Shown here: piece by piece, positions 37,558 through 64,000 of the stretch
Numbering within the stretch: the first letter of the stretch is position 1
Layout of the letters: every line of letters begins with the position of its first letter
DNA from: an uncultured Chloroflexia bacterium
Lineage (GTDB): Bacteria; Chloroflexota; Limnocylindria; Limnocylindrales; CSP1-4
NCBI GenBank assembly: GCA_963795645.1
Contig: CAWCIK010000008.1
Location: 157 to 64,156 of the forward strand
DNA: 64,000 bases
Direction of reading: 5' to 3'
Program-made: the position numbers and the translations under genes
Notes under the pieces: model-generated
Database searches by the model: none
Seen by the model: only the letters and a program-made list of their open reading frames with translations
What the model was told of the DNA's origin: nothing

Positions 37558-38662
37558 GCGGTCAAATGGTCGAGGAAGAAAGCGTGGCCACGGCCGCCGT
37601 CGCACGGGACACGGTCACGGACAGCAAACAATCTGAGATGCTGCTCGACGTGCGCGACCTGCGCACGTCGTTCCGATTGCGCGAAGGCAGCGTCAAGGCC
37701 GTCACGGGCGTCAGCTTCAACGTCAGGCGCGGCGAGATCCTGGGCCTCGTCGGCGAATCCGGCTGTGGCAAGAGCGTCACCTCGCTCTCGATCATGGGCC
37801 TGGTCTCAGCGCCCGGCGTCGTCGAAGGTGGGCAGGTCATCTTTGATGGCCAGGATCTGCTGACGCTGACCGACAAGCAGATGCGCGACATCAGGGGCGA
37901 CCGGATCTCGATGATCTTTCAGCAGCCCACCTCGTCGCTCAACCCCGTCCTGCGCGTCGGCTTCCAGATCGGCGAAGTGCTCGAGGCGCACAAGAACATG
38001 AAGCGCAAGGCGGCGCGCGACAGAGCCATGGAGCTGATGACCATGGTCGGCATACCCGACCCCAAGCGTCGGCTCGATTCCTACGCCTTCGAGATGTCCG
38101 GTGGCATGGCCCAGCGAGTGATGATCGCGATGGCCCTGGCCTGCGAGCCGGAGCTGCTGATCGCCGACGAACCCACAACTGCCCTCGATGTCACGATTCA
38201 GGCCCAGATCCTCGACCTCATGCGCCGACTCCAGCGCGAGACGGGAACGGCGATCGTGCTCATCACCCACGACCTGGGAGTGGTCGCCGAGATGTGCGAC
38301 CGAGTCGCGGTCATGTACGCCGGAGAGATCATCGAGGAAAGCGATACCACGCGACTCTTTGACGATCCGCTCCACCCGTACACCAAGGGCCTGATCGGCT
38401 CCGTCCCGGTTCTCGGGCAGCCGGTTGATGCGCTTTCGGTAATTCCGGGCATCGTGCCGAACTTGATCGATCTGCCCGAGGGCTGCCGGTTCGCGCCGCG
38501 CTGCGCGGCGCGAACCGAGTACGACGTCAAACCGGCAACTGAGGTTCATCCCCAGCTGCAGATGGCGGGCGTTGGCCACAGCGTGCGCTGCTGGCTGTAC
38601 CACTCCTCGAGCGAGACGCCGGCCTGGACTCCTCCCCTGGCCAAGGAGGAGGTCAGAGCCCA

Positions 38663-38666
<4 letters not shown>
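37554..38666 (+). CDS. ABC transporter ATP-binding protein (OppD/DppD-like)
   Basis: Walker A GESGCGKS, signature MSGGMAQRV, Walker [13 protein letters not shown], and the C-terminal oligopeptide domain ...[12 protein letters not shown]...CRFAPRC... ATGA overlap with the permease. Confidence 0.92.
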
Positions 38667-39751
<1,085 letters not shown>

Positions 39752-39799
39752 CACTATTCCACCACTCCGGCGAATCAGGTATGGCGTCCTCACCTGTGC

Positions 39800-40969
39800 T
39801 CAGGCGCGCGGCGTATCGATCCCCATCGGACCGCGGTTCCCAGTGCGTGCCGATACAGTCGGCTCGTCATCCCCCAGCTGCGAGTCTTCGGCGGCCCTGG
39901 CGCTCGATTCCTTGAGCGCGTTCGGCAGGTCGTCGACGGTGACCGGGAAATGACAGGCGACGAGATGATCCGGAGCTACCTGGACGAGCGGCGGCACCTC
40001 TTCGGCGCACTTGTCTCGCGCCTGGAAGCAGCGGGTCCTGAAGACGCACCCGCTCGGCGGGTCGATCGGGCTGGGAATGTCGCCGCGCAAGACGATGCGA
40101 GTGCGGCGCTTCTGCTCCTCCGGGTTCGGAACGGGCACTGCCGACAGGAGTGAGTGAGTGTACGGATGGAGAGGCATCTGGTAGATCGTCCTGCGCGGCG
40201 CCGACTCCATGATCTTGCCCAGGTACATGACCGACACGCGGTGCGAGATCTGGCGGACGACCGCGAGGTCGTGGGCCACGAATAGATAGGCGATGTTGTA
40301 ATCCTGCTGCAGGTCGCGCAGAAGGTTAAGGATCTGGGCCTGGATCGACACGTCGAGCGCGCTCACGGGCTCGTCGCACACGACCAGCTTGGGTCGAAGC
40401 GCGATCGCACGCGCTATGCCAATGCGCTGCCTCTGGCCACCCGAGAACTCGTTCGGATAGCGGTTGTAGTGCTCGGGATTCAGCCCCACGCGCTCCATCA
40501 GCTCCTGGACCGACTTCTTGACGCCGCCTTCCGGCGTAATCTTCTGGACGCTGAACGGGGCAGAGATGATCGTGCCCACGGTGTGACGTGGGTTGAGCGC
40601 GTTATACGGGTCCTGGAAGATCATCTGCGCCTTGCGACGGATAGGCACCAGCTGCTTCGTCGAGAGCTTGGTGACGTCATCGCCATCTAGCTCGACCTGC
40701 CCTGCTGTCGGATGAACCAGCATCAGGATCGAGCGTGCCGCAGTCGTCTTGCCGGAGCCCGACTCGCCAACCAGGCCAAGCGTCTCACCGGGATTGATCG
40801 AGAGGTCGATGCCGTCGACGGCCTTGACGTAGCCGATGGTGCGCGGCAGCAGGCCGCGTGACCTGACCGGAAAGTACGTCTTGAGACCTGTGACCTTGAC
40901 GATCTCGCCACCTGACTGCGCCGCCGGCGCTGTCAACGGCTGGACGACGGTGTCGTTGGAGATGGTCAC
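39800..40969 (-). CDS. ABC transporter ATP-binding protein (OppF/DppF-like) of a second, convergent transporter
   Basis: GESGSGKTT, FSGGQRQRIGIARAI, LVVCDEPVSALD, ...HPYTHSLLSAVP...CVFRTRC... Confidence 0.9.
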   Translation of the reverse strand: MTISNDTVVQPLTAPAAQSGGEIVKVTGLKTYFPVRSRGLLPRTIGYVKAVDGIDLSINPGETLGLVGESGSGKTTAARSILMLVHPTAGQVELDGDDVTKLSTKQLVPIRRKAQMIFQDPYNALNPRHTVGTIISAPFSVQKITPEGGVKKSVQELMERVGLNPEHYNRYPNEFSGGQRQRIGIARAIALRPKLVVCDEPVSALDVSIQAQILNLLRDLQQDYNIAYLFVAHDLAVVRQISHRVSVMYLGKIMESAPRRTIYQMPLHPYTHSLLSAVPVPNPEEQKRRTRIVLRGDIPSPIDPPSGCVFRTRCFQARDKCAEEVPPLVQVAPDHLVACHFPVTVDDLPNALKESSARAAEDSQLGDDEPTVSARTGNRGPMGIDTPRA

Positions 40970-41262
40970 TGATTGGCTCCCGACTCAAGCGCGGAGAGGA
41001 CCTCGCTGGCGATGCGCTGCCTGGTCTCAGGCGGTAGGTGACAACGCACGAGATGATCCTCGTCGCCAGAAGGAAGGAGATCGGGGCGGACAGTCTCAGA
41101 GAGGCCGTTGGTCATCGCGGAATATCGGCAGCGCGGCTCAAAGACACAACCGGTGGGCAGGTGGATGGGTGACGGCGGATTGCCCGGGATCGGCAGGAGG
41201 CGACCGCCGACCTCCACGTCCATGCGCGGAATTGACGCCAGGAGGCCAAGCGTATAGGGCAT
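40966..41262 (-). pseudogene. 3' fragment only of an OppD/DppD-like ABC ATPase (about 98 C-terminal codons; the nucleotide-binding domain is missing)
   Basis: ...(M/H)PYTLGLLASIPRMD...LLPIPGNPPSPIHLPTGCVFEPRCRY...VRCHL... ends at 40966, overlapping the next gene. Upstream, where Walker motifs should be, the sequence switches to proA on the other strand. Confidence 0.7.
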
Positions 41263-41292
41263 CTCCGGTTGAAGACGGGTTCTCGCCGGCAC

Positions 41293-42582
41293 ATGACACT
41301 TACCCAGACCATCGCCGATCCTGCTGAAACGCCTGACCTGATGGTGGGCCGGTTGTGCCATGCCGGACGTCTGGCTCAGCGCGTGCTTGCGCATGGACGA
41401 AGCGGGGAAGGCGGGGGCGCTGCGCGCGGCCGCGGCTCGCTGCGCGATGCGGAGGGAGAAATCCTTGCGGCCAATGCCGGGGACGTCGAGGCGGGCACCG
41501 AGCGAGGGCTGACCGGCGCCATGCTCGACCGGCTGCAGGCTCGATTCCGGCGCGCCTTGCCGGCATTGCCGATGCGGTGGAGCAGGTGGCCGCGCTGCCC
41601 GATCCGGTCGGCCAGGTGATCGACGCGGCCGAGCGGCCCAACGGCCTGAAGCTCAGCCGCGTGCGCGTGCCGATCGGGCTCATCGGCATCATCTACGAAA
41701 GCCGCCCCAACGTCACCGCCGATGCCGCCGCGCTGTGCCTGCGCTCGGGCAATGCCGTGCTGCTGCGCGGCGGCAGCGAGGCGGTCCATTCCAACCGGGC
41801 GATCCATGCGGCGCTTGTCCGCGGGCTTGAGAGCGCGGGCGTTCCCGCCGACGCCGTCCAGCTGGTCCCGACGCAGGACCGCGCGGTGGTCGGCGCGATG
41901 CTGACGGCCGCCGGGCCTGATCGACATGATCGTGCCGCGCGGCGGCAAGAGCCTGGTCGCGCGCGTGCAGGCCGATGCGCGGGTGCCGGTGCTCGCCCAC
42001 CTCGACGGCATCTGCCACACCTACATCCATGCCGCCGCCGATCCGGAAATGGCGCGCGCGATCGCGCTCAACGCCAAGATGCGCCGCACCGGCATCTGCG
42101 GGGCGATGGAGACGCTGCTGCTCGACACGCAGCTTTCCCGCATCGCGCGCGCGTGGTGGCCGCGCTGCTCGATGCCGGCTGCGAACTGCGCGGCGATGCG
42201 CGCGCGCCGCGCGCTCGACCCGCGCGTGCTGCCGGCCGAGCGCCGAGGACTGGGACACCGAATATCTCGACGCCGATCCTGTCGGTCGCGGTGGTCGATG
42301 GGCTGGACGCGGCGCTCGGCGCATATCGCCGCGCATTCCTCGCACCATACCGATGCGATCGTCACCGCCGACGATGCCGCGGCCGAGCGCTTCCTGGCCG
42401 AAGTCGACAGCGCCATCGTCATGGTCAACGCCTCCAGCCAGTTCGCCGACGGCGGCGAGTTCGGGCTCGGCGCGGAGATCGGCATCGCCACCGGCCGGCT
42501 CCATGCGCGCGGGCCGGTCGCGCTGGAAGGGCTGACGACCTACAAGTGGCAGGTGCGCGGCACCGGCCAGACGCGGCCCTGA
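41293..42582 (+). CDS. proA: Gamma-glutamyl phosphate reductase; at least 5 frame changes as assembled
   Basis: Pieces: [17 protein letters not shown]..., ...[32 protein letters not shown]..., ...[77 protein letters not shown]..., [15 protein letters not shown]...[10 protein letters not shown]...[12 protein letters not shown]..., ...HTDAIVT...[41 protein letters not shown]... Confidence 0.85.
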
Positions 42583-42585
42583 CAC

Positions 42586-43218
42586 ATGCCGGCGACGGCG
42601 CGGCGGTCCCGCACCGGGCTGCTCGGCGGCAGTTTCAACCCCGCGCATGGCGGCCATCGGCGATCACGCTGTTCGCGATGGAGCGCGCTGGCGCTGGACG
42701 AGGTGTGGTGGCTGGTTTCGCCGGGCAATCCGCTCAAGCCCGGCGCGGGCATGGCGCCGCTTGGCCGCGCGCGTTGCTTCGGCCCGGCGGCAGGCCCGGC
42801 GCGCGCCGATCCGGGTGACCGCGATCGAGCGCGAACTGGGCACGCGCTATACCGTCGATACGCTGCGCGCGTTGCTGCGGCGCTATCCCGAAGCGGCGCT
42901 TCATCTGGCTGATGGGCGCCGACAATCTGGCGCAGTTCCACCAGTGGAAGGACTGGCGCGACATCGCCAGACTTATGCCGATTGCGGTAATCGCGCGTCC
43001 GGGCTATGATGCACGCTGCTTTCGCGAGCCCCGCGATGGCCTGGCTGAGGCGATTCCGGCAGGCCCGCCGCCAGTCTCACGCAACCGGACAAGTGGAGCG
43101 CACCCGCGCTGGTGATATTGCGATTCGATCCCGATGCGCGGTCGGCCACGGCGATCCGCCAGGCCGATCCGGACTGGGCCCGGCAATCGAGCCCGGTCGG
43201 CTTTCGCGCGACGCCGTG
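42586..43218 (+). CDS. nadD: Nicotinate-nucleotide adenylyltransferase; at least 3 frame changes
   Basis: [14 protein letters not shown]..., [70 protein letters not shown], spread over three frames. Confidence 0.8.
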
Positions 43219-43354
43219 ACGCACCGCCTCATCCCCGGCGCAGCGTGAACGGCCCTGCGGCCCTGCCCTGCGCGCCCGGCACCACAGCACACGATTGAAC
43301 GCGGCGCGATGGCCCCATCGTCGTACGATCCCTGAAAGGAGCAGACCCCAACTA

Positions 43355-43746
43355 GATGCCACAGGCACAGTACAGCCGGTCCAGGCCGGCAACCGCCCCC
43401 GGCCATGGTCAGAGCGACGACCCGCTACTGGCCCTGGTCCTGCAGTCGCTCGACGACGATCAGGCCCAGGAAGTCGTGACCATCCCTTGAGGGCAAACCA
43501 GCATTGCCGACCACATGGTCATCGCCTCGGGCCGTTCGACCCGTCAGGTTGCGGCCATGGCGCAGAAACTGGGCGAGCGCCTCAAGCAGGGCGGCTTCGG
43601 CAGCCCGCGATCGAGGCCTGCCCGCGGCCGACTGGGTACTGGTCGATGCCGGCGGCGTGATCGTCCACCTCTTCCGCCCGGAAGTGCGCAGCTTCTACAA
43701 CCTCGAGCGGATGTGGGGCTTTGACGGACCGTCCGGCGCGGCCTGA
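43355..43746 (+). CDS. rsfS: Ribosome silencing factor RsfS; at least 2 frame changes
   Basis: ...LVLQSLDDDQAQEVVTIPL..., ADHMVIASGRSTRQVAAMAQKLGERLKQ, DWVLVDAGGVIVHLFRPEVRSFYNLERMWG. Confidence 0.8.
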
Positions 43747-43829
43747 GCGTCGCTGATAGCCCGGCTACAAGCAGCCGGGCAGGCGAGAGGATCGCGCAGA
43801 CTGCGCCAAGGTGCTCGCGCGCTGAGATC

Positions 43830-44255
43830 ATGCTGCTCCATATCATCGCCCGAGGCAAGATCGCCCGCTCGCCCGAAGCCGAGCTGGTCGATCGCTATGC
43901 CAAGCGCATCACCTGGCCGTTCAGGCACACCGAATTGCCCGACATCGGCGGCAAAGTGCCCGCGCCCTGCAGACGCCTGCCGCGAAGTGCTGCTCGACGA
44001 GCGCGGCAAGCGCTGACATCGGAGGAATTCGCCGCCCTGCTCGGCCGCTGGCGCGACGAAGGCGTGCGCGAAGCCGCTTCCTGATCGGCGCCGCCGACGG
44101 CCATGGCGATGAGGCGCGCGCGGCAGGCGGACCTGCTGCTCGGCTTCGGCGCGATGACCTGGCCGCACCTGCTGGCCCGCGCGATGCTGGCCGAACAACT
44201 GTGGCGCGCGACCGGCATTCTGGCGGGGCATCCCTATCACCGCTCCGGGAGCTGA
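43830..44255 (+). CDS. rlmH: 23S rRNA (pseudouridine1915-N3)-methyltransferase RlmH; at least 2 frame changes
   Basis: [27 protein letters not shown]..., [42 protein letters not shown]-stop. Confidence 0.8.
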
Positions 44256-44261
44256 AGCAAC

Positions 44262-45548
44262 ATGCCGTTTCATGACGGTGCGCGGTCGCTAGAAGCGCGC
44301 CATGCATTCGTCACCCGCGCCTGCCTTGCCCTCGCCATCAGCTGGCTATTGCTGGGCGCGGCGTCGGGCTGGGCGCAAGTCGCCGCCTACGACGACGCCG
44401 GCTCCCGGCGACGGCACCGGCGTCCGCGCGCGGATGGCCGAGGCGCGGAGCAGGCGAACAGCTGCCCGGTCCAGCGTGCCGAAGCGGCTCGAGGCCGAGC
44501 GCCGCCGCGCCACCCAGGCGGTCGAGCGGACCGCGCGCGAGGCCGCCGCGGTCGCCGCGCGCATCCAGCAGGACCGAGGCCGACTATCGCCGCCGCCGAA
44601 CGGGCGCGCCCGGCTGGTGGCGGCAGACAGCGACCAGCTGCGGCGCGACCGACTCGCCGAACGTCAGCGGCCGCTGGTCCGGCTGACCGCGGCGCTGCAG
44701 CGGCTGCCCGGCGGCCGCCGGCGCTGGCGCTGCTGCGTCCCGGCTCGGTGACGCGACACGATGCACATGCGCGCGCATGTCGAGACCATGTTCCCGGAAG
44801 TGCAGCCGGCGCACCGCCGCGCTGCGCGCGGAGATGGCGCGCGGCCGGGCGCTGCAGACGCCGGGCGCTTGCCTCGCGCGCGACCTTGCGGGCACAGCGA
44901 GAGCCAGCTTACCGCCCGGCGCGGACTGCTGGCCGGCGCTCGAGACTGCGGCAGCGCCTGGCCAGCCCGCAGGCGAGCGGCATGCCGACCGCGAGCCGAA
45001 CGGGCGCTGGCGCTGGCCGACAGGCGCGCGACCTTGGCGACCTGGTCGACACGGTCGGGGAGCAAGGCTGCGCTGCGCGAGCGCCTGGCGGCGCTGCCCG
45101 GGCCGGTGCTTCGGCCCGACCTCCCCGGCGGTGACAGGTTATTCGCGGTCGTGCCGCCGTCCAGCGCGCGACCGGCAGCCGGCCCGCCGCTCCCGCATCT
45201 GACTCCGGCCACGGGCGGCTGGTCACCGGCTTCGGCGAGGCAGCGCCGGCAAGGCCGCGTCGCGCGGGCTCGCCTGGCTGTGCGCGCGGCGGGCCCAGGC
45301 GGTTGCGCCGGCGCGGGGCGGGTGGCTTTCGCCGGGTCCTACCGGGGCTATGGCAAATCGTGATCATCGAGCACGAGGGCGGCTGGACACCTGGTCACCG
45401 GCTGGCCCTGGCTCGATGGCGCGTGGGCGACACGCTCGTGGCCGGGATCGCCCCTCGGCATGGCCGGGCCGGTCAACCCGGTGGTCGGGCTCGAACTTCG
45501 GCGCGAGGGCGACCGGTCAATCCGCTGCTCTATATCCGCACCCTTTGA
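44262..45548 (+). CDS. M23-family peptidase / EnvC-like murein hydrolase activator; many frame changes
   Basis: Signal-like ...ACLALAISWLLLGAASGWAQ and an Ala/Arg/Gln-rich coiled-coil region. The C-terminal M23 core is G(R)VAFAGSYRGYGKIVIIEHEGGWT...VGDTLVAG...NPVVGLELRREGRPVNPLLYIRTL-stop, pieced from several frames. Confidence 0.7.
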
Positions 45549-45637
45549 AGGTTGCGGGACAAGTGCCCACGTCAGCCATCTGGTGTTAACCGCCGATGGG
45601 CGATATATGTCACCAAACCGACGAGGGCCCGAAGCCG

Positions 45638-45880
45638 ATGAAATTCGCTCCACTTTTCCGCGCCACTCTGCTGGTCAGTGCCGTGGCCCTGCTCCCGGCC
45701 AGCACCGCGGGGCTTGCCGCCGTCGACGGACGATCGAGCGCGCAGTTCGGAAAGCTCCTGGCGATCTACCAGCTGGTCAAGGAAAATTACGTCGATCAGG
45801 TGGACGATGAAAAGCTGTTCCGCGGCGCGATCAACGGCATGCTGGAAAGCCTGGACCCTCATTCGTCCTATCTTGACGCT
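45638..45880 (+). pseudogene. ctpA: 5' fragment only of a C-terminal processing (S41, CtpA-type) peptidase
   Basis: MKFAPLFRATLLVSAVALLPASTAGLAA...FGKLLAIYQLVKENYVDQVDDEKLFRGAINGMLESLDPHSSYLDA. Similarity then stops, and the PDZ and catalytic domains are absent. Confidence 0.75.
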
Positions 45881-45945
45881 GGTGGGGCGGCACGCGACCT
45901 CGCCGCCAAGGGACTCGGGAGCTGGGGACGCGCCCATCACCAATT

Positions 45946-46309
45946 GTTCGACGAGCCCCGGGACCGTGGCCGCTGGACGAACGGTGGGTGTCGGGTGCGG
46001 TGATCTCCGTCGACACGGCGCGGCTCCGAACCGTCGGCGGCTTCGACGAGGAGTTCTTCCTGTACTACGAGGATGTTGATCTGAGCCGACGCCTCGCCGG
46101 CGTGTTCCCCGGGATGGTGGCACGGGTAGCCGACGTTGAAGCGGGCGTGCACACGGTCGGTGGTTCCGCCGATGGAGGACACTCACGGCGCGGCCGAGCG
46201 GGCACGCCGCCGCGCTGGGCGACGAAGTACGCGAAGGCACAGCACGGGTCCAGCTGGAGCCTCGTGGCCCGGGCGATCAAGCCGCGTGAACCGGGAATCG
46301 GCAACGTGA
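45946..46309 (+). pseudogene. 3' fragment only of a family-2 glycosyltransferase (boundaries approximate)
   Basis: ...WVSGAVISVDTARLRTVGGFDEEFFLYYEDVDLSRRL...HTVGGSA...RWATKYAKAQHGSSWSLVARAIKP. The N-terminal catalytic half is missing. The likely stop is TGA at 46307-46309 after a frame change. Confidence 0.65.
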
Positions 46310-47380
46310 TCCCGGCGACCGTCGCGTCCGTGTCCCTCGGTCGTGACGGAGCGAAAGGCGAGGTCCGCAGGGTTGCCTCGTGGCGCCTCATGTTCGAGGC
46401 CGCCGGCGCCGACGTGCGTCGCACGTCTCGTTGCAGGCGGGACGGCGTCCCCATGGGGACGGTCTGGTCCCGGCGCTCACCGGTCGCGCCGCCTGCCAAC
46501 GCCTCGCCTGGTCGGGAAGTCGCTGCTGGCGCAGCTCGACGAGATCGCTCCGTCGGTGGTGATCGTGGTCTCCGGGCGCGGCCTTTTCGACCCCGCAATC
46601 GTCGACCGACCGTGGACCGTCATCCTTGACCTCGTGGACAGCTTGAGCCGCAGCTACCGCGACCGGGCCGACCTTGTCTCCAGTACCGGCCGTTCGCGCG
46701 CCGCCTACCGCAGCCTGGCCGCCGCGACGGACGGCTCAAACGTCGCCTGACCAGTGACCCGCTGTCCGGACCCCGTCGCCGCCGGGTGGGGTGACGCCCA
46801 CCGACTCGGCGTGGAGTGGGTACCCATCGTCGCGGACCCCGACCTCGAGCCACTCGCCGACCGTGTTCCCGACCGAGACGTCCTGTTCTTCGGCACCCTT
46901 CGCTACCCGCCGAACGTCAACGCACTCGAGCGGTTGGCCTGCCCTCGGCCGGATGTCCAGCGGACGCCGCCCCGGACAACCGCACTGGTCGCGGGCGCTG
47001 CGCCCGTGCCCCGAGTCGTCGAGCTGTGCCGGCGCCACGACTGGGAGTCTCGTAAACTTCGACTCGCTGCCGGAAGTCGCAGCCCGGGCGCGCGTGTCGC
47101 CGTTGCGCCGCTCAGCCGCACCGCGGGCATCCAGATCAAGATCCTCGACGCCGCGATGCTCCACCTTCCCCAGGTTGTGCGCTCGCCGGCCCTCGCCGGC
47201 CTCGACCCTGACTTCCCGCTTCCGTCCTTCGACGACGACCCGAAGTTCGTGGCCGAGATCGTCCGTGTGCTCGATGACCGGAGCCAGGCGACTCGTGAAG
47301 CCGACACGACCCGTCGCCACGTCCTCGGTGCCTACAGCGTCGATCACTGGAGCGACTGGGCCGCCGCACGGACCGACTGA
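46306..47380 (+). CDS. Glycosyltransferase (GT1/GT4-like); several frame changes; start approximate
   Basis: ...VASVSLGRDGAKGEVRRVASW..., ...VVIVVSGRGLFDPA...ILDLVDSLSRSYRDRA..., ...DVLFFGTLRYPPNVNALERLA..., ...APLSRTAGIQIKILDAAMLHLPQVV... pieced from three frames. Confidence 0.5.
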
Positions 47381-48841
47381 TTCAGGCCCGCGCCGGTGAC
47401 ACTCCGGCGGATGGTTGCGATCTCGGATGGTCGAATCGCTCGCAGCACCATGACCAGGACCAGGGACGTCAAAACGGCACCACCCACGGACACCACGATC
47501 CCAAGATCGCTGCTGAGCTCACCAACCCCGGCGGCCAGCAGCGCAGCGACGAGGCGCCGACTGCCGGGCCCGGCGCGTGGATTTGCGTCGTTCGTCGGGT
47601 GCGCACCGCGAACGCGACGAAGGCCAGGACCCGGATGGCGACCATCACCGCCGCCGCGCCATTCGCTTCGAAGACCGGGACGAGCGCAAGGTCCAACGCG
47701 ACGGTCGCGACACCGACGATCGCGCTCACCCAGACCAGGCCTCGCTCGTCGGACCCGGCGGCGAGCACCGTGCCTTGCAAGACCGGTGATGAAGAGCAGC
47801 GGAAGCTGGACGCCAAGAGGGCGAGCGGCACGATCGCGCCGTCGTAGGCGGCGCCGAACAGCGTGTGCACGATCGGCTCCCGAGCCGCCGATGATCACCG
47901 CAGCGATGCCGAGACCGAGGAGCCAGGCGACGCGGCACGCGTCGGAGAACGCCTTCTGGCTTCCCGTCCTGATCGCCGGCCGCCAGGCGCCGGCTCAACA
48001 CCACCATCAGCGGAACGCCGATGACGGCCCCGACGTAGGCCACGCCTTCGATCGATCGCGTCGCGAGGTCATAGATCGCGGTTTCGCTTCGGGTGGTCAG
48101 CAGCGAGACGAGGATGACGTCGAAGCGAAGGATCAAGACGTTGATCACGCCGACGATCGCGAACGGGATTGCCTCGATGAGCAGGCGCCGGCTGCGGGAC
48201 GCATCGACGCGCGGTCGGCTCCGCCACACGTGCCAGCGTCGCGCCAGAGGGATCGTGACCAGCAGCAGATCGGCGGCGCCACTGCGCTCGCCACCATCGG
48301 ACCCCGCACGCCGGTGCCGCAGCAGCGAGCGCGACCGCGCCGCCGATCGCGACGAGGCTGACTCGACCCGCAGAGATCCACGCGCGCTCGACGATCCGGC
48401 CCCGGCCGTCGAGCGCACCGATCACCGAGGTCAGCACTGCGTCGAACGGGAGGCCGAGTCCGGCGATCGCCATGTCGACGAACGTGACGTGCGGGATACC
48501 CGGCGACGACGACGAACCCGAGCGCGACGCGTAGCCCGGCGACCCCAAGCCCGACACTCATGAGCGCGGTGCCCGGAGAGCAGGCTGTCGCTGTCCTCTG
48601 GATGCGTGCTGACGTGCTTCGTGATCGCGACGGTGGTGCCCGCGTCGGCAACGATCGCGACCAGCAGCATCAGCGCCGCGACGATCGAGTACCGACCGAA
48701 CTCGTTCGGCGACAGCTCGTGGGTCGCGACGATGATGAATCCGAAGGCGACTGCGCGTGCCGCGGTCTGACCAACAGCGAGCGCTGCGCTGCCTCGCGCC
48801 ATCAGACGTCCGTCGCTCTCCTCGCGGTGCGGATCAACCAT
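47344..48841 (-). CDS. Polysaccharide/oligosaccharide flippase (MOP/Wzx-like polytopic membrane protein); many frame changes; ends approximate
   Basis: ...GSAALAVGQTAARAVAFGFIIVATHELSPNEFGRYSIVAALMLLVAIVADAGTTVAITKHVS..., ...FAIVGVINVLILRFDVILVSLLTTRSETAIYDLATRSIEGVAYVGAVIGVPLMVVLSRRLA..., ...APFASKTG / ...LVLVMVLRAIRPSEIATIRR... Confidence 0.6.
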
Positions 48842-48893
48842 GCGAGCCGCTCCGCGTCGCGGGCCGAGTCCGGCCGGTAGCCTCGACGCTTCG

Positions 48894-49750
48894 ATGCCCG
48901 AGCCGAGCGAACTCCCGCGCCGGCCATCGTCGCGCGCACGCTGCACCGTCGTGATGCTGGCGCAGAACGAGGAGACTGCGGATCGGCGATGCCGCTGCCG
49001 AGCCTGCGTCGAGCACGGCTTCCCCGTCGTGGTCGTCGACGGTGGCTCGACCGACGCGAACCGTCGCGATAGCCGAGGGCCTGGGCGCGCCAGTCCTGCA
49101 CCGTCCGTTCGACAACATGTCCGCCCAGCTCAACTGGGGCGATCGACCGAGTCGACGAGCGACTACGTCCTCGTGGTCGACGCCGACGAGATCATGTCTC
49201 CCGAGCTCGCCGCCGAGATCGAGACCGCGGTGCGCGCCGGAGTTTCGACGGCGGCGTGGGTGCCCAGCATCGACTACTTCGCCGGCCGTTGGCTGGTCCA
49301 CTACCCACAACGACACCTCCGCCTGTTCCGACGGGGCTCCGGCCGCTTCGAGAACGAGATCCACCAGCGGTTCGCGTTCGACGTCGAGAACCCCACGATC
49401 GTCGAGCTCACCGGGCCCGCTCGACGCACCCCTCGCATCTCGACGTCAGCGGCTTCGTCACCAAGCTCAACCGCTACACGGACGGCGAGCTCGGCGGCGA
49501 CCTGTCCCGCGGCGGTCCGGCGGCGCTGCTGCACGCACGTGCTGCGTGCCGAAGGGCGTCGCCGCGTTCGGTCGCTGGTACTTCGTCCGCGGTGGCTGGC
49601 GCGACGGACGGCAGGATTCATTCACTCCGTCTACCTGGGCGCGTACCGGTTCACGCTCTGGGCCAAGGCCGCGACGGCGCAGGAGATCGAGCCGCCGACG
49701 GCTCGAAGCCGCGACTCGCCGCGTGGCGCCGGAGCCGCAAGTCGCGCTGA
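48894..49750 (+). CDS. Family-2 glycosyltransferase; several frame changes; 3' end uncertain
   Basis: ...[11 protein letters not shown]..., ...[13 protein letters not shown] / [28 protein letters not shown]..., ...[20 protein letters not shown]..., ...[32 protein letters not shown]..., ...[16 protein letters not shown] / [18 protein letters not shown]... Confidence 0.65.
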
Positions 49751-49763
49751 GCCGACGTCGCCG

Positions 49764-51070
49764 TCACCGCCCGCCGCCGCCGACGAACAGCTCGCGCAAG
49801 CGTGCGGGCGCAGATGCGGGCGTCGAGGCCAGGCTCTGGTGGCGCAGGTAGAAGAAGTCGTACTGGAGCTTCTCGAGCGCGTCGCTGCTCGTCGCCGGCG
49901 TAGCCGAACTTCACCTGGGCCCAGCCGGTGAGGCCGGGGCGGACGAGGTGGCGCAGGTCGTAGAACGGGATCTTGTCGGTGAGCTCCTCGACGTAGTGCG
50001 GCTGCTCCGGCCGCGGCCCGACCACCGAGAGATCGCCCCGCAGGATGTTGACCACCTGCGGGAGCTCGTCGAGGTGCAGCGCGCCGCAGGATCCGACCGA
50101 ACGGGGTGATCCGCGGATCGTTCTCGGTCGTCCACTCGTTCGGCGCGCCGTCAGCCGTCGGCGCGCATGGTCCGGAACTTGATGATCGAGAACCGCTGAC
50201 CGTCGCGACCGACCCGCGGCTGGCGGTAGAAGAGCTGGCCGCGGTTCGCGCACAGGTTGCCGAGCAGCACGAACGGCAGGCTGACCGCGAACACGACCGC
50301 GCCGGCGGCGCCGAGCGCGATGTCGAGCAGCCGCTTCACCCGCGCGTACCGCTCCTGGTGCAGCTCCCGGATGTCGAACATCAGCGACACCCGCTCGAGC
50401 TCCGCGACCGGGAGCTTGCCGAGCCACTCCTCGTAGAAGTCGGCGAGGGTCCGGATGCGCAGCCCGGCTTCGTGCAGCGCGGCGACCTGCTCGACGATGT
50501 GCGGTGTCGTCCTGCGCCGCGCGCGCGAAGCACCACGACCGTCGCGTCGTCGGCGATCGCGCGGTCGAAGAGCGGCTCGGCGCCGCGCTCCGACCGCGTC
50601 GCTTCGCGCGACCGCGAGCGCCGCCACGACGATCGCCGGGCGCTCGGCGCCGTCGGCCAGCTCGAGCCGGATCGTCTCCCGGTCGTCGTGCCCGCCGACG
50701 ACGACGACGCGGTCGCGCAGCTCCGCCCGGATCTCGCCGCCGGTCGCGATGATCGTGCACACCACGTACCAGGGCACCAGGATCACCGCGCTGCCGAAGA
50801 CGACGACCCGGGGCAGCAGCGCGCGTCCCGACGACGAGCTGCGCGAGGGAGATCGTCGAGCGCGCCGCTCGCCGCTGGCGGCGACGCGCTCAGCCACAGG
50901 CTGCGCCGCCGGCCGAGGTCCGGGAATCCGAGCGCGTAGGCCGCGACCCAGAGCAGGACGATGTACAGGATCGCCCAGCCGAATCGGAACGAGCCGGTGA
51001 AGTCGTACTCGTGTCGGACCGCGTGGAGCTTGCTCAGCCCGAAGACCGTCCCCACGATGCCCAGAAGCAC
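49764..51070 (-). CDS. Polyprenyl-phosphate sugar phosphotransferase (bacterial sugar transferase, WbaP/EpsB-like); several frame changes
   Basis: N-terminal TM region [11 protein letters not shown]...[18 protein letters not shown], then ...[57 protein letters not shown]... and ...[25 protein letters not shown]...[10 protein letters not shown]...[16 protein letters not shown]... The likely end is ...[11 protein letters not shown]-stop at 49764. Confidence 0.75.
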
Positions 51071-51133
51071 GAACGCGCGCGCGCCAGTCGCCGCATGCGC
51101 GCTGTATCGGCAGAGGACCGGCCTCGCCAGAAG

Positions 51134-51862
51134 CCTACGGAGCGGACTTCACTGTCCGTAGCACCAGCAGACCGCGGGATCGTCGCCGACGCTTCGTACT
51201 CCGGGGCCCGGGCGATGAACCCGGGCGGCGGCGCCGGCTCGTCCATGTGCTCGAGCAGCAGGCCGAGCTCCGCCATGCGGTTCACGTAGCGTGACAACGG
51301 CCGGTGCACGAACGGGCAGCACGACCCCGGGCGCGAGCTCCTCCATCGACACGTCCTCGGTCAGGTACGGCCCGATCCGCCAGTACTGCTCGCCGAGGAT
51401 CTGGTCGTCGATCCAGCCGCTCCCCGGCACCTGCAGCAGCGGATGGTTCAGCAGGAAGAGGAACGTCCCGCCCGGCGCCAGCACCCGGGCGACCTCGGCC
51501 AGCGCGCCGTCGACGTTCGGTGATGTGCTCGAACACCAGGCACGCGACCGCGGCGTCGAAGCTCGCCGTCCGGCACCGGGAGCGCGTCGGCCGCGCCCCG
51601 CAGGTAGCGCGGGCCTCCCCCACGCTCCTCCGCGACCACGAGCTGCGCGACCGACGGATCGACGCCGACGACCGACGCGCGCCGACGGTGCGCGCGATGT
51701 GGCGCGCGACCTGACCCTCACCGCACCCGATGTCGAGCACCCGCGTCGCGCCCTGCAGGTGCTCGGCGATGAGCGGGAGCATCTGCTCCTCGTACTCGGG
51801 GTCCGCGCCGTCGGTGAACTCGTCCTGCCACCAGCCGGCGTGGGTCTCCCACGCTTCGTCGG

Positions 51863-51868
<6 letters not shown>
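51134..51868 (-). CDS. Class I SAM-dependent methyltransferase; at least 3 frame changes
   Basis: ...[45 protein letters not shown]..., ...[13 protein letters not shown]..., ...[21 protein letters not shown]..., ...[29 protein letters not shown]... The TTG start overlaps the uvrA stop. Confidence 0.7.
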
Positions 51869-54709
<2,841 letters not shown>

Positions 54710-54713
<4 letters not shown>

Positions 54714-54961
54714 GTTCGGCTCGCCGACCGGGCACCGCGGGCGGCGCCTTCCGCACCGCCTTCGGCGACGGCCTTCGCGGCCGGCTTCGCCGGCCGTCTT
54801 CGCGACTGCCTTCGCCGCCGACTGCTTCGTCGCGGCCTTCGCCGCGCCCTTGGGCGCCGCCTTCTTGGCACCGACTTCGACGCCGCCTTCGCGCGCGTCG
54901 CGCCGTCGGCGCGCTTCGCTGCGTCGTCGTCTCGCTTCGTCGTGCTCCGCCGCTCCGCCAT
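54710..54961 (-). CDS. Possible small Lys/Ala-rich basic protein or N-terminal extension of UvrA (frame uncertain)
   Basis: ATG at 54961: [30 protein letters not shown]..., and after one frame correction ...[26 protein letters not shown]... That corrected frame runs directly into the uvrA frame. Confidence 0.25.
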
Positions 54962-55014
54962 CGCCTCGGCAGTCTACTTCCGTCGAACAGGTGTTTGGGG
55001 TACCGGACGCGGCG

Positions 55015-57049
55015 TCAGCTCACGGCCTTGAGCTCGCGCTTGACCTCGTTGATCTCGTCGCGCAGCCGGGCGGCCTCCTCGAAGCGCATGTCCTTCGCGG
55101 CTTCGTGCATCTCCTCCTGGAGCGCCTCGATCAGGCGACCCAGCTCCTCGGGCGGCACGCCGCGCAGATCGTCGAACACCGCGCTCTGCTGCCGGCTCCG
55201 CCCCCGACCCGCGCCCGCGCGACGGCTTCGGAGTCGTCCGAGTCCGCGGAGCCGCACCATCTCGAGGATGTCCGTGACCTTCTTGCGGATCGTCTGCGGA
55301 TCGATGCCGTGCTCCGCGTTGTAGTCGAGCTGGCGCTTGCGCCGCCGGTTCGTCTCGCTGATCGCGTGCTTCATCGAGTCGGTCATCTGGTCCGCGTACA
55401 TCACGACCTGACCGTCGACGTTCCGCGCCGGCGCGCCCGATCATCTGGATGAGGCTCGTCGCGGACCGGAGGAACCCTTCCTTGTCCGCGTCGAGGATCG
55501 ACACGAGCGAGACCTCGGGCAGGTCGAGGCCCTCCCGGAGCAGGTTGATGCCGACGAGCACGTCGTACTCGCCGAGCCGCAGCGACCGGAGCAGCTCCAC
55601 CCGCTCGAGCGTGTCCACCTCGCTGTGCAGGTACCGGACCCGGATCCCGAGCTCGAGCAGGTAGTCGGTCAGGTCCTCGGACATCTTCTTCGTGAGCGTG
55701 GTGACCAGCACCCGCTGGTCGTTCTCGGCCCGCAGGTTGATCTCGGCGACGAGATCGTCGATCTGGCCCTTGGTCGGGCGCACCACGACCTCGGGGTCCA
55801 TCAGCCCGGTCGGGCGGACGATCTGCTCGACCACCTGCTTCGACACCTTCAGCTCGTAGGCGCTCGGCGTCGCCGACATGAAGACGACCTGGTTGATCTT
55901 CTCGCCGAACTCCTCGAAGCGCAGCGGCCGGTTGTCCATCGCCGACGGCAGCCGGAACCCGTGCTCGACCAGCGTGTCCTTGCGCGGACCGGTCGCCCTC
56001 GAACTGGCCGTGCAGCTGCGGGATCGTGACGTGGCTCTCGTCGAGCACGCAGAGGAAGTCGTCCGGGAAGTAGTCGAGCAGCGTGTACGGCGCCTGGCCC
56101 GCGGCGCGGCCGTCCAGGAAGCGCGAGTAGTTCTCGATCCCGGAGCAGAACCCGACCTCGCGCATCATCTCGAGGTCGTAGGTGCGTGCGCATCCGCAGC
56201 CGCTGCGCCTCGAGCAGCTTGTTGCGGTCCTCGAGCCACTTGAGCCGCTCGCGCGAGCTCGGCCTCGATGCCCTCGACCGCGATCCGCATCTGCTCCTCC
56301 TGGGTGACGTAGTGCGACGCCGGGAAGAGCACGAGCTTGTCCTGCTCCTCGAAGATCTCGCCCGTGAGCGGATCGACCGACGCGATCCGCTCGACCTCGT
56401 CGCCGAACAGCTGGACCCGGATGCCCCGCTCCTCGTACGCGGGGAAGATCTCGATCGTGTCGCCGCGCACCCGGAACTTGTTGCGGACGAACGACATGTC
56501 GTTGCGCTCGTACTGGAGCTCGACGAGCCGGCGCAGGATGTCGCGCTGGTCCCGCTCCTCGCCGACCTCGAGGGTCAGCAGCTGCTGGGAGTACATCTCC
56601 GGCGAGCCGAGCCCGTAGATCGCCGAGACGCTCGCGACGATCACGACGTCCCGCCGGCTCAGCAGCGCGCTCGTGGCCGAGTGCCGCAGCCGGTCGATCT
56701 CGTCGTTGATCGACGAGTCCTTCTCGATGAACGTGTCCGTCGACGGCAGGTACGCCTCGGGCTGGTAGTAGTCGTAGTACGAGACGAAGTACTCGACCCG
56801 GTTCTTCGGGAAGAACTCCCGGAACTCCGAGGCCAGCTGCGCGGCCAGGCTCTTGTTCGGGGCCAGGATCAGCGTCGGCCGCTGCACCTCGGCGATGAGC
56901 CCGGCGATCGTGAAGGACTTCCCGGAGCCGGTGATGCCGAGGAGGGTCTGGTACTGGTCCCCCCGCTCCACGCCGGCGGCCAGCTCCGCGATTGCGCGCG
57001 GCTGGTCCCCGGCCGGGGCGAAATCGGAGACGAGCTCGAATTCAGGCAC
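55015..57049 (-). CDS. uvrB: Excinuclease ABC subunit B; at least 4 frame changes as assembled
   Basis: [47 protein letters not shown]...[10 protein letters not shown]..., ...[14 protein letters not shown]...[23 protein letters not shown]..., ...NRPLRFEEF...[10 protein letters not shown]...[12 protein letters not shown]...[14 protein letters not shown]...[13 protein letters not shown]...[17 protein letters not shown]..., ...[23 protein letters not shown]-stop. Confidence 0.9.
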
Positions 57050-57059
57050 TGTCCTGACC

Positions 57060-57783
57060 CTAACGGCAGGGTGGGACAGTTACTTCCTGGCGCACTCCGG
57101 CCTGCGCTCCTGCTCGCTCGCGCTTTGGCGTCGGCGTGAGCTGCTCGAGGTCGGCCCAGAGGGCGTCGACCTGGGCGGCGAGGTGCTCGCGGGTCCCGCC
57201 GTTGTCGAGCAGGTGGGTCGCGACGGCCCGGCGCTCCTCGTCGGTCGCCTGCGCCGCCATCCGGGCCTCGGCATCGGCCCGCTCCAGGCCCCGCTGCTCG
57301 AGCCGGTCCAGGCGCAGCTCCCGGGGCGACTCGACGACGATCACCACCTCGTAGCCCCGTTCGGCGGCCTTCTGGGACTCCACGAGCAGCGGGACGTCGT
57401 TCACGACGATCGCGTCCGGCGGGGCCTCGCTCATCTCCCGGAGGAACTCGGCGCCGATCGCCGGATGGGTGATCGCCTCGAGCGCCTTGCGGTCCTCGTC
57501 GGTGGCGAACGCCCGGGCCGCGAGCGCCGGCCGGTCGAGCGTGCCGTCCGCCGCGAGGACCTCCGGACCGAACCGCTCGACGATCGCCGCCAGCGCCGGC
57601 TGACCCGGCTCGACCACCCTGCCGCGCGATCAGGTCGCCGTCGATGATGATCGCGCCACGCTCCGTGAGGAGCTCGGCCACCGTCGACTTCCCCGCCCCG
57701 ATTCCGCCCGTCAAGCCCACCAGCAGCACGGTCGAGGACTCTACGGGACAGCGCCGCCGGTCCGGCACCACGCCCGGCCGCAT
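57060..57783 (-). CDS. coaE: Dephospho-CoA kinase; one frameshift (an extra G in cagggtggtc near 57,620)
   Basis: ...[37 protein letters not shown] then [33 protein letters not shown]...ITHPAIG...[11 protein letters not shown]... The start is uncertain. Confidence 0.8.
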
Positions 57784-57845
57784 CCTGTCCCGAACATCCG
57801 TTATGCACCTTCTATAGGCTTCTGTCGGTTCGAGGAAAGGGACAG

Positions 57846-59626
57846 TTGACCCAGACTCCCACGCACCTCCGGGACACCACGCGCTGGCCCACGCCGCGCC
57901 CCGGTGAACCGCGGCCGTCGCCACGACGACCCGAGCCGGGCGCGGGCCCGCCTCGGACGCCCGCGACTCGGGCCCGCGCCTCGATCGCCCGGTCGGTCAC
58001 CGCCCTCGGCCACCTCGGGCCGCTCGTCACGTTCCTGCGCTGGGCCAGCCTCGCCGTCGGCGTCGCCCTGATCCCCACCACCGGCGACGCCGACCAACCC
58101 GACCCTGATCGTCGCGGTCGCGGTCCTGCTCGCGAACACGATCTTCCGCACGATCCGTCCGCTCCGGCTCCAGCCCGCGACCTGGCGGGCCGAGGCGATG
58201 CTGCTCCTCGACCTCGCGCTCGCGGTCCTGATGATCACGCATCACCGGCAACTGGGCGAGCCCGCTCATCCTCACCCCGCTGCCGACCGTCATCCTCGCC
58301 GCCTACGCGTGGGGCTACCGCGAAGGTCTCGCCGCCGCCGCGCTCACCGGTGCGACGATCGCGTTGGCCGACGCGCTCTCCGGCGTCTCCGAGGACGCGC
58401 TGCGCACCGGGATCCTCGCGTCGGTCGTCGTGCTGCTCGCCGCGCTCGTCGGTGGGTTCACCCGCCAGCTCTGGCTCGAGGCCGAACGGCGGCAGCAGGA
58501 GACGCTCGACCAGGTCACGCGGATGTCGATCGCGAACGACCTGCTGCACGCGCTGCACGACGTCGTGCAGACGCTGCCCGTCGTCGCTCGACCTCAGCGA
58601 CGTCGTCGCGTCCGCGCAGGAGACGTTCCGCGAGCTGGTCGACTCGACCGTCGCCGTGGTCATCGTTCCCGACGACACCTCCGACCTCTGGCACGTCGAG
58701 CTCGCCGAAGGCGTTCGCGCATGCCCGCGACCCTGCTCCCCGACGAGCTGCCCGCTCACGCTTCGACCAGGCGCTCGCGACCAGCGGCGTCGTCCGGGCC
58801 AACGACCTCACGCCCGGCTCCGGCGCGGCGTGCGGCGCCGAGACCCGGAGCGTGCTCGCCACGGCGCTGCGCGCCCACGACCGCGTCGTCGGCCTCGTCT
58901 CGATCGAGCACTCGCGACGCGGACGCGTACACCGAGGAGGACGCGAGCCTCATCGCCGGCCTCGCGTCGTCGCTCGCGCTCGCGGTCGACAACGCCCGCT
59001 GGTTCTCCCGGCTCCGGACGCTCGGCGCCGAGGCGGAGCGCGGCCCGCATCGCCCGGGACCTCCACGACAACGTCGCCCAGTCGCTCGCCTACGTCGGCT
59101 TCGAGCTCGACCGGCTCGCCGCGGTCCACGGCGACGACCGCGAGCTGAAGGATCTGCAGGGCGTCGTCCGCGGCGTGGTGGCCGAACTGCGCGAAACGCT
59201 CTATCAGCTCCGAGCGACCGTCAGCGAGAACCAGGACATCGTCGGACGTCGCCGAGGGACTACATCACCCGCTGGTCGAAGCCGAACCGGCGTGGAGAGC
59301 CGAGTTCTCGCCCCGTACCGGGCGGTCGGCGGGTCCCGGTCCAGGTCGAGCAGGAGCTCTGGCGCATCCTCCAGGAATCACTCACGAACGTCGAACGACA
59401 TGCCGATGCCTCCCACGCATGGATCAGCTGGAGGATTGGTGATGGTCGGGCGCAGCTCGAAGTTCGAGACGACGGACGCGGCATGAACACCGATGCCGTG
59501 TCCCGGGAGCGCTACGGGCTCGTCGGCATCCGCGAGCGTGCGGATGCCGTCGGCGCGCAGGTGACGCTGGTCAGCGAACCGGAAAACGGCACGACCGTGC
59601 TCGTAGAGCTGGAGGTACCGCAATGA
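57846..59626 (+). CDS. Sensor histidine kinase (membrane N-terminus, GAF-like middle, HisKA_3 + HATPase_c); many frame changes
   Basis: H-box region ...[24 protein letters not shown]...; ATPase ...[29 protein letters not shown]...[10 protein letters not shown]...[39 protein letters not shown]-like piece reads ...[30 protein letters not shown]... Confidence 0.75.
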
Positions 59627-60306
59627 CCAGCGTCCTGGTCGCCGACGACCATCAGCTGCTGCGCCAGGCACTGCGGCGCGCGCTCGAGGACTCGGGCTTC
59701 GACGTCGTCGCCGAAGCCGGTGACGGCGAAGAGGCAGTCCGCCTCGTCGCGCTGCTCCGGCCCGACGTCGTGGTGATGGACGTGACGATGCCCGTGCTCG
59801 ACGGCATCGAGGCGACCCGTCGCATCCACGCCGCGACCGGCGACGCCAAGGTGCTCGTCCTGACGATGCACGACGAAGACGCGCTGCGGGTCAAGGCCCT
59901 GCGCGCCGGAGCGGTCGGATTCCTGACGAAGGACTGTGCGATGCAAGAGGTCGTCGAGACGGTACGTCGCGTCGCGGATGGCGACACCGTGTTCTCACCC
60001 GAGATCGCCGCGGCGATGATGGCCGAGTTCCCGCGTGAACGGTGAGACGGCGACGAACGGGAACGCGGAACGGTCACGCGACGGGGTCGAGCTCGAGGCG
60101 ATCACTCGCCGCTCACGAAGCGCGAGCGCGAGATCCTGCAGCTCGTCGCCGACGGGCACTCGACCACCGAGATCGCCCGCAACCTGTTCATCAGCGCGAA
60201 GACGGTGAAGAACCACCTCGCGTCGATCTACGCCAAGCTCGACTCCCGCGACCGGACCCAGGCCGTGCTGAGCGGCATGCGCCTCGGCATCGTCCAGCTC
60301 CAGTAG
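59623..60306 (+). CDS. Response regulator, NarL/LuxR family; frame change(s) near 60,040-60,110
   Basis: [17 protein letters not shown]...DVVVMDVTMPVLDGIEAT...VLVLTMHDE...GAVGFLTKD, then in another frame LTKREREILQLVADGHSTTEIARNLFISAKTVKNHLASIYAKLDSRDRTQAV...VQLQ-stop. Its ATG overlaps the kinase stop (ATGA). Confidence 0.85.
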
Positions 60307-60314
60307 CTGTCCCA

Positions 60315-60374
60315 CCCGTGGGCTCTCATTGGCCCATGCACCGGTCCTCAGCAGTAGTACGGGCCATTGAAGCC
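60315..60374. repeat. Copy R1 of a roughly 58-60-nt direct repeat flanking the DUF559 gene (degenerate hairpin)
   Basis: cccgtgggctctcattggcccatgcaccggtcctcagcagtagtacgggccattgaagcc. It matches R2 at 51 of 58 aligned positions plus a 2-nt indel (my own count) and contains the gene's ATG. Confidence 0.8.
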
Positions 60375-61259
60375 TTGGCCGCTCGGCAGTTCGGCGCGTT
60401 CAGTCGCGACCAGGCCTTCTCCCTCGGCAGCGACGCGTCACACGATCGAGCACCAGGTCGCGAGCTGGCTGCATGGCCGACGGCCTTGCCGCGCGTCCAT
60501 CGCGTCGCCGCGGTTCCGTGGTCGTTCCGCCAGGACGCAATGGTGGCTGCACTCTGGTCGGCGCCGGACGGTCTCGTGTCGAATCGCGATCGGCTGGTCA
60601 GCTCTGCGGGCTTGGAAGGCGTCGCCACCACGGAGGTGCACGTCACGGTGCCTGCGTTCGCGACATCTCCGCTCGGCCCGTGTGGTCGTTCATCGGGTGG
60701 TCGATCTTCTGCCGGCGGACATCGGGCGCCTCGGGCCGATCCCGATCACCTCGCCGTTGCGAACCGTGATCGACCTCGCCGCGGTCCTCGACGTCGACAC
60801 GCTGGAGATCGCGATCGAGTCCGCGTTGCGCCGTAGGCTGTTCTCGGTCGGGCAGCTTCGGTGGCGCGCCGACGCACTCATGGGAACGGGCCGACCCGGC
60901 TCGACCACGTTGCGGTCACTGCTCGACCGTCACCAGCTCGGAGCGACCGACAGCGGGTGGGAGATTCGCACCGCGCAGCTCCTCGAGGCGGCAGGGTTCG
61001 GCACGCCGGTCCGTCAACACCCGATCCACGCGAACGGGGTGCTCGTCGCACGCGCGGACCTCGCCTACCCGGACGTGCATCTGGTCATCGAGTACGACAG
61101 CGACCAGTGGCATGACGGAACTGCTCGCCGTCATCGCGACGCGGCTCGGCGCAACCGGCTCCGGTCGCTCGGGTGGACCGTCATCGAAGTCACGCCCGCG
61201 CAGCTACGCGCATCCGAAGCGGCTTGCTGTGCGACGTCGCGTTGCTGCTCGCGGCCTGA
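60336..61259 (+). CDS. DUF559 / endonuclease-domain protein with an AbiEi-like N-terminal HTH region; several frame changes
   Basis: MHRSSAVVRAIEALAARQFGAFSRDQAFSLG..., ...HRVVDLLPADIGRLGPIPITSPLRTVIDLAAVLD...LEIAIESALRRRLFSVGQL...GRPGSTTLRSLL...SGWEIRTAQLLEAAGFGTPVRQHPI...ARADLAYPDVHLVIEYDSDQWH...RDAARRNRLRSLGWTVIEVT... The end is approximate. Confidence 0.75.
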
Positions 61260-61277
61260 ACCAGGCGCCGTCCCGGA

Positions 61278-61335
61278 CCCGTGGGCTCATTGGCCCGTAC
61301 CCCGGTCCAGAGCAGGAGTACGGGCCAATGAAGCC
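61278..61335. repeat. Copy R2 of the direct repeat; a perfect 13-bp hairpin that can also serve as a bidirectional terminator
   Basis: cccgtgggctcattggcccgtaccccggtccagagcaggagtacgggccaatgaagcc. The arms cattggcccgtac / gtacgggccaatg are exact reverse complements with a 17-nt loop. It lies between the DUF559 stop and the rpsA stop. Confidence 0.8.
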
Positions 61336-61379
61336 GGATCGAGCTACGACGGAGCTGTCGCTCTCGGGTGCTGCCTGAG

Positions 61380-62901: not shown

Positions 62902-63001
62902 GGGGAAGGTTCTCCTAGGGATTGGGACAGTCGGGCGCCGCGCGATCGAAGGACTGCGGCCGCGTGGATGGTGAGGGCCCGGAAATGAGGGCCAAATGAG
63001 G

Positions 63002-63746: not shown

Positions 63747-63854
63747 GCTCGCAGGCTACGGGGCCCAGGTTGTGCGGCTCGCTCATCGACCCGCCTGCCT
63801 TACCGATCACTTTACGCAACGCTTGACAATTCCCCGTGGCCCTAGGGGCAACGG

Positions 63855-64000
63855 ATGGTGAGCACGCCGAACTCTGGGGGGACGGCTCGGCGGATGGTGA
63901 TCCTTGGTCTGCTGGCAGTGATCGCGGCTTCCGGTTACGTCACTGCCTTTCCGCTCGTCCGGCGCGGTCTCGCCGATGTCGGCCGGATCCCGGGCCCGGT
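63855..64000 (+). CDS. 5' end of a membrane protein gene (partial, runs off the window)
   Basis: Own translation: MVSTPNSGGTARRMVILGLLAVIAASGYVTAFPLVRRGLADVGRIPGP... Only 48 codons are visible. Confidence 0.3.
   Translation, partial: MVSTPNSGGTARRMVILGLLAVIAASGYVTAFPLVRRGLADVGRIPGP

Follow-up and report, generated by a model that had tools for sequence, protein, structure and literature searches.

The window analyzed here, a stretch of 64,000 nucleotides that covers bases 157–64156 of contig C8 (which runs to at least base 64214), contains a point at which the gene of an OppD/DppD-type ABC ATPase breaks off and gives way almost directly to proA, which raises the question of whether a biological event or the assembly itself placed these two genes side by side. 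The contig belongs to a long-read metagenome bin (G000) that is composed of nine contigs with 3.05 Mb, is 89% complete, and has a contamination estimate of 2.8%. It is almost certain that C8 is a chimeric, misassembled contig in which the DNA of three unrelated bacteria has been joined, and the switch from oppD to proA can be regarded with very high confidence as a false assembly join and no biological event. In the following, part A denotes the window left of 41271, part B the stretch 41272–45879, and part C the remainder of the window from 45880 on.

The last complete native gene is an intact OppF-type ABC ATPase of 389 amino acids (39800–40969, minus strand, from the ORF list). Next to it lies a 3′ fragment of oppD (40966–41271, minus strand), delimited by the ORF list, the comparison with contig C9, and Pfam, which comprises 101 codons and a stop (QPEMPYTLGLLASIP...). 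The fragment has only the C-terminal oligo_HPY domain (PF08352, E 1.4e-13, Pfam), while the copy of OppD on C9 possesses both ABC_tran (PF00005) and oligo_HPY (PF08352); of the two domains expected in an OppD/DppD-type ATPase, ABC_tran is therefore missing from the window, as the initial annotation had stated for the Walker domain, and both are found on C9. The same annotation had described a remnant of approximately 98 codons reaching 41262; the remnant stands, but its extent does not, since it has 101 codons and the break falls at 41271|41272, 9 nt further right. This position (breakpoint 1, 41271–41272), read as a false join of Chloroflexota and Sphingomonadales DNA, is set by the end of the match between C8 and C9, beyond which the two diverge, and by the point at which an independent metagenome contig comes loose from the window, with contigs of the soil runs X2 and X45 as evidence. 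On the other side, proA starts at 41293, so that the cut-off ATPase does abut proA as described, with 21 nt between them (41272–41292, plus strand). These 21 nt are all that is kept upstream of proA, which has lost its native promoter region, as judged from the sequence and the comparison with Novosphingobium kunmingense, in which proA follows a divergent M23 gene and an intergenic stretch of approximately 230 nt. The claim that proA lacks a promoter is thus correct; the lack of an upstream partner, which had been listed with it, is no anomaly, because the native proA of N. kunmingense heads its operon too. The GC content steps from 0.63–0.65 to 0.70–0.72 at the break, in line with the change in GC3 that had been noted by eye.

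The two sides of the break, taken separately, also differ in taxonomy at the level of the phylum, the left one being assigned to Chloroflexota/Limnocylindria and the right one to Sphingomonadales. For the OppF encoded next to the break on its left side, the closest named relatives (72–81%) belong to Candidatus Limnocylindrales/Limnocylindria and Chloroflexota, and the UvrB that the bin itself encodes on contig C5 has its closest named relatives in these groups too. Judged from these sequence relationships, the binned host is a Candidatus Limnocylindria-like member of Chloroflexota. An actinobacterial host was considered and rejected, as a search of the bin for a WhiB gene gave none and the relatives of OppF and UvrB are Chloroflexota.

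The stretch 37680–41271 is present a second time in the assembly at the start of contig C9, where it takes up 3592 bases (C9:1–3592 against C8:37836–41427), with 99.916% identity, three transitions, and no gaps. Beyond window position 41271, C8 and C9 diverge completely. C9 continues with a full OppD (363 amino acids, Walker A GESGSGKS), two permeases, and a substrate-binding protein; the 5′ part of oppD is found on C9 only and nowhere in C8:41428–64214, and this portion of C8 does not recur on the other contigs of the assembly. C8 and C9 form an assembly fork, one branch of which restores the cut oppD. Positions 1–8700 of C9 (L016) constitute a complete second peptide ABC importer set (OppF, OppD, two permeases, and a substrate-binding protein), of which the substrate-binding protein is 700 amino acids long and has a Thr/Pro-rich linker. 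As this set is complete, the reading of the window in which a second set was visible only as ATPases is an artefact of the false join.

The three transitions in the overlap lie at window positions 39772, 39906, and 41233, of which the one at 39906 changes a single OppF residue (S/L); no exact record encoding the OppF of the window was found, and the C9 allele differs from it by one residue. The soil run X1 has the alleles of C8 at 39772 and 39906, and in run X2, position 41233 agrees with C9. The differences between C8 and C9, together with the C8 alleles in X1, indicate that at least two strains exist and are mixed in the assembly, so that one of them could in principle carry a different right flank. 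This diversity, with two C8 alleles seen in an independent run, favors a real structural variant, in which C9 would represent the majority strain and C8 a minority strain with foreign DNA, an alphaproteobacterial and an actinobacterial piece, integrated inside oppD. Such a variant is nevertheless highly improbable; the 5′ half of oppD is nowhere downstream in C8, which means a replacement and not an insertion, and the soil samples and the foreign DNA itself, described below, speak against it as well.

Runs of one soil study (P1), which contain the organism at a low depth of approximately 3×, served as stand-in data for the join. Over the surveyed interval of 31.3–51.2 kb, runs X1–X4 have many contigs of 150–520 nt with no differences at 33.1–41.27 kb, and at 41.27–51.2 kb they have only scraps of 20–33 nt, which come from other organisms. 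A coverage step at the break, for which a check had been proposed, is thus seen in these other soil samples, with a depth of approximately zero right of 41271. A 384-nt contig of X2 corresponds end to end to C9:3340–3723 with no differences, 131 nt of it past the break, and its match to the window stops at 41271. Similarly, a 153-nt contig of X45, which is a different sample, matches 41206–41271 and then runs into TTCGAAGATGGTTTTCGTTGATCC..., which is C9 sequence; its loose end after 41271, TTCGAAGATGGTTTTCGTTGATCCCGACTC, exactly equals that of C9, and its single mismatch over 41206–41271 is probably position 41233. Contigs identical to the left flank are present in X1–X4 and X45. In the six soil runs (X1–X4, X45, and X46), no contig spans the join of C8 and two (in X2 and X45) span the form of C9, a comparison in which the presence is more telling than the absence, as is usual for Logan contigs of low-depth runs. 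An index search that covered the junction region and parts B and C, together with a 90-nt junction probe, returned no run with more than 13% of the sampled words. Reads spanning the join are presumably lacking in the source sample. For a minority strain with foreign DNA in oppD, these data are unfavorable on two counts: both contigs that cross the site follow C9, and samples that hold the organism are without a trace of the right side.

Part B is collinear with Sphingomonadales loci at 65–82% DNA identity in the order proA, nadD, rsfS, rlmH, M23 peptidase, and ctpA, all on the plus strand. Frameshifts were counted by frameshift-aware protein-to-DNA alignment with the proteins of N. kunmingense as reference for this part. 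The first gene, proA (glutamate-5-semialdehyde dehydrogenase of the Sphingomonadales type, 41293–42582, assigned by alignment and NF001221), has 11 frameshifts and no in-frame stops. The next four genes were assigned by collinearity and alignment: nadD (42586–43245) has five frameshifts and no in-frame stops; rsfS (43347–43746) has one frameshift and two stop codons within a short alignment; rlmH (43830–44252) has four frameshifts and no in-frame stops; and an M23/EnvC-like peptidase gene (44325–45527) has no in-frame stops and approximately 23 frameshifts, a count that is less certain at 58% amino acid identity. The block closes with a 5′ fragment of ctpA (45638–45879, from the alignment and the end of homology) of approximately 81 of approximately 445 codons, free of frameshifts and in-frame stops, and in at least nine Sphingomonadales loci the homology stops at 45876–45879, inside ctpA. 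The total for part B is approximately 44 frameshifts in 4.6 kb, or approximately one per 100 nt.

The protein encoded by proA matches its profiles above the curated cut-offs (NF001221 with 533 bits and a cut-off of 289; TIGR00407 with 416 bits and a cut-off of 317) only after the 11 frameshifts are read through, and the gene is untranslatable as it stands. The read-through ProA has 82% amino acid identity to the ProA of N. kunmingense, with its 11 frameshifts falling within 1.28 kb. In a search of 185,579 species genomes, the best 80 ProA loci are all from Alphaproteobacteria, and the best of these are from Sphingomonadales (75–83%), namely, a Sphingomonadales MAG (83%), N. kunmingense, and an Erythrobacter (both 80%). 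In the search for a near-identical native alphaproteobacterial contig with the upstream flank of proA, the best match reached 83% in genomes and 81% in metagenome contigs.

A bona fide proA (TIGR00407) was found in 0 of 15 related genomes, nine of the same genus and six of the same order; two of these relatives are 90% complete, one of them being a single contig, and nearly all control genomes are proA-positive. The sole proA signal in the bin is the broken copy at 41293. For a lineage without proA, gaining the gene could in principle be of use, a point in favor of the structural variant, but the copy in question carries 11 frameshifts. The many frameshifts, the truncated ctpA, and a proA without promoter could also be attributed to an ancient horizontal transfer followed by pseudogene decay, that is, to an old and fixed insertion of the proA block. 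This explanation is extremely unlikely to be correct. Decay would add nonsense and missense changes, but ProA retains 82% amino acid identity and has no stops against its 11 frameshifts; the composition of the block is without drift towards the host; the same-genus genomes are without a proA remnant; and, at 99.9–100% identity, C9 and two environmental contigs have oppD without interruption. Many frameshifts with few nonsense changes in conserved proteins are the pattern of an unpolished consensus from thin long-read support and not of pseudogene decay.

The foreign DNA does not stay of one kind up to the window end. A second breakpoint at approximately 45880 (±15; 45880–45895), placed by the sequence, the end of homology, and the alignment, is read as another false join, between Sphingomonadales and Acidimicrobiia DNA. 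The Acidimicrobiia block that follows (45896–64000) comprises a C-terminal piece of a GT2 gene, polysaccharide genes, a methyltransferase gene, uvrA, uvrB, coaE, a two-component system, and rpsA. Its stretch of 49.8–63.7 kb is collinear with Acidimicrobiia contigs, including L181 and L182, at 82–89% DNA identity, and the shared Acidimicrobiia order is rpsA, response regulator, kinase, coaE, uvrB, uvrA, methyltransferase, and sugar transferase. The read-through UvrB of part C is 96–97% identical to the UvrB of Acidimicrobiia MAGs, and its identity does not exceed 66% in 300 genomes of the phylum of the host, which indicates that part C comes from another phylum. Intact uvrA, uvrB, and coaE of the bin itself lie on C5, with 52%, 60%, and 36% amino acid identity, respectively, to the copies on C8, and these three genes are thus single-copy markers present as divergent duplicates in one bin. 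The initial annotation had proposed a chimeric join of two organisms; the chimera is borne out by the fork with C9, the taxonomy, and the composition, but the number of organisms rises to three with the Acidimicrobiia DNA from 45880 on. In part C, uvrA has nine frameshifts and no in-frame stops, and uvrB has four to six frameshifts and zero to one stop depending on the reference; altogether, part C has 13–15 frameshifts in 4.9 kb, or approximately three per kb.

Within this block, a region of approximately 1.2 kb between the response regulator gene and rpsA (60317–61517), which contains a DUF559-like gene, is missing from all five related contigs of Acidimicrobiia, which match part C collinearly elsewhere. 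It looks like an insertion in the genome of the Acidimicrobiia donor.

The gene content of the right side bears on the minority strain once more, since the added DNA is made up of single-copy core housekeeping genes from two other phyla in their native order, genes are truncated at both joins, and no repeats, integrase, or transposase accompany them. One form of this explanation, in which a rare strain of the soil-dwelling Limnocylindria-like Chloroflexota bacterium, from a lineage without proA, took up chromosomal DNA of Sphingomonadales and Acidimicrobiia and by illegitimate end-joining exchanged everything past mid-oppD for this mosaic, is given very little credence; if it were true, the frameshifts would be due solely to the few reads available for such a strain.

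The insertion of a mobile element or genomic island was rejected. C8 shares with such insertions an interrupted gene followed by DNA of different GC content; it differs from them in being without target-site duplication, terminal repeats, integrase, transposase, or tRNA, in that the other half of oppD is not downstream, and in a cargo made up of the core housekeeping genes of other phyla. A search for direct or inverted repeats shared by 41272 and 45880 gave only GC-rich matches of the kind expected by chance. No integrase, transposase, or recombinase gene occurs in 41272–45879, the block being filled by six collinear Sphingomonadales housekeeping genes, and the interrupted oppD was not found to resume beyond the block in C8:41428–64214. 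The earlier remark that repeats and recombinase genes are absent is consistent with these results. Both joins cut genes in the middle of their ORFs, and no adapter-like sequence is visible at either of them.

The composition of the contig changes together with its taxonomy. When G000 windows of the same size are ranked by tetranucleotide distance to the genome, part B falls within the top 0.7% and part C within the top 1.3%, and the segments of part A are typical of the bin; the tetranucleotide comparison of the two sides that had been suggested thus gives a step at the break. A misplacement during binning, in which C8 would be a correct contig of another organism, could draw on the atypical composition of its right part and on the bin contamination estimate of 2.8%. 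It is exceedingly improbable all the same, because the left 41 kb are bin-typical in composition, share the 3.6-kb overlap with C9 at 99.92% identity, and carry Limnocylindria-like genes, and because three phylum-level signals with truncations at both joins fit no single organism.

The error density changes at the break as had been described, with no frameshifts in the six intact ABC genes at 33.4–41.27 kb against 11 in proA alone. The count of GC3-phase switches, a measure of frameshifts that needs no reference, was too noisy for a sharp boundary and was replaced by alignment. The difference in error rate between parts B and C hints at unequal read support for the two. The native stretch at approximately 18–34 kb is also frameshift-dense and poorly polished, and contigs of X1–X3 over 31.3–33.3 kb have 98–99% identity to it, with a single-base indel relative to the window at 31853. 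The noise of this stretch looks like poor polishing or a strain mixture in the DNA of the host itself and not like foreign DNA. As native DNA can be as noisy as this, error density alone is no mark of foreign DNA.

Further irregularities were observed elsewhere in the bin. The starts of contigs C2 and C7 overlap in inverted orientation (C2:1–2124 and C7:1–2118) with 97.8% identity and 15 gaps, which is another unresolved junction of the assembly graph. C1 contains a 1.2-kb repeat, 99.75% identical, whose copies are 19.5 kb apart (256310–257521 and 275855–277063), and C6 has a perfect direct repeat of 828 bp with 108 bp between the copies (1360133–1360960 and 1361069–1361896). An insertion sequence may account for the first, and a tandem duplication or an assembly stutter for the second.

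Chimeric contigs that join different genomes within MAGs are the kind of error that is targeted by GUNC, metaMIC, and the contamination estimates of CheckM. C8 resembles them in the abrupt change of taxonomy, composition, and coverage (the last in other soil samples) inside one contig, in its cut genes, in the duplicated single-copy markers, and in the existence of an alternative contig with the true continuation; unlike them, it joins three phyla in series within 5 kb. The course of events can be reconstructed as follows. The real chromosome of the host leads from window positions 1–41271 straight into C9, with the whole oppD, the permeases, and the binding protein. At 41271|41272, the assembler took a false branch and added a 4.6-kb piece of Sphingomonadales DNA, to which it attached, at approximately 45880, Acidimicrobiia DNA of at least 18 kb. 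The foreign pieces were presumably backed by very few reads, so that their consensus was never polished, and an unpolished consensus would leave the frame-breaking indels of 1% and 0.3% in genes that are otherwise conserved. Frequent single-base frameshifts with few stops (approximately 1% in part B and 0.3% in part C, relative to nearest references that are only 80–89% identical) would be comparable to those of a Nanopore-type consensus at low coverage. As the joins of C8 are not located at a shared repeat or conserved gene, they speak for chimeric reads or false overlaps rather than for a collapsed repeat. The direct cause was most likely a single chimeric long read or a handful of them, or else a false overlap where a contig ends.

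The defect concerns the quality of the data and not biology. The 22.8-kb tail of C8, from window position 41272 to the end, is foreign to the genome of the bin and should be removed, and the contig can be repaired by joining C8 up to window position 41271 to C9 from base 3593. Findings made at 41.3–64 kb describe Sphingomonadales and Acidimicrobiia DNA with uncorrected indels and not the binned organism. If left uncut, the tail would falsely credit a Chloroflexota bin with proA, nadD, rsfS, rlmH, ctpA, rpsA, uvrA, uvrB, and coaE. It would also imply a gene transfer between phyla and hide the apparent absence of proA from this Limnocylindria-like lineage, which may use another route to proline or be auxotrophic for it.
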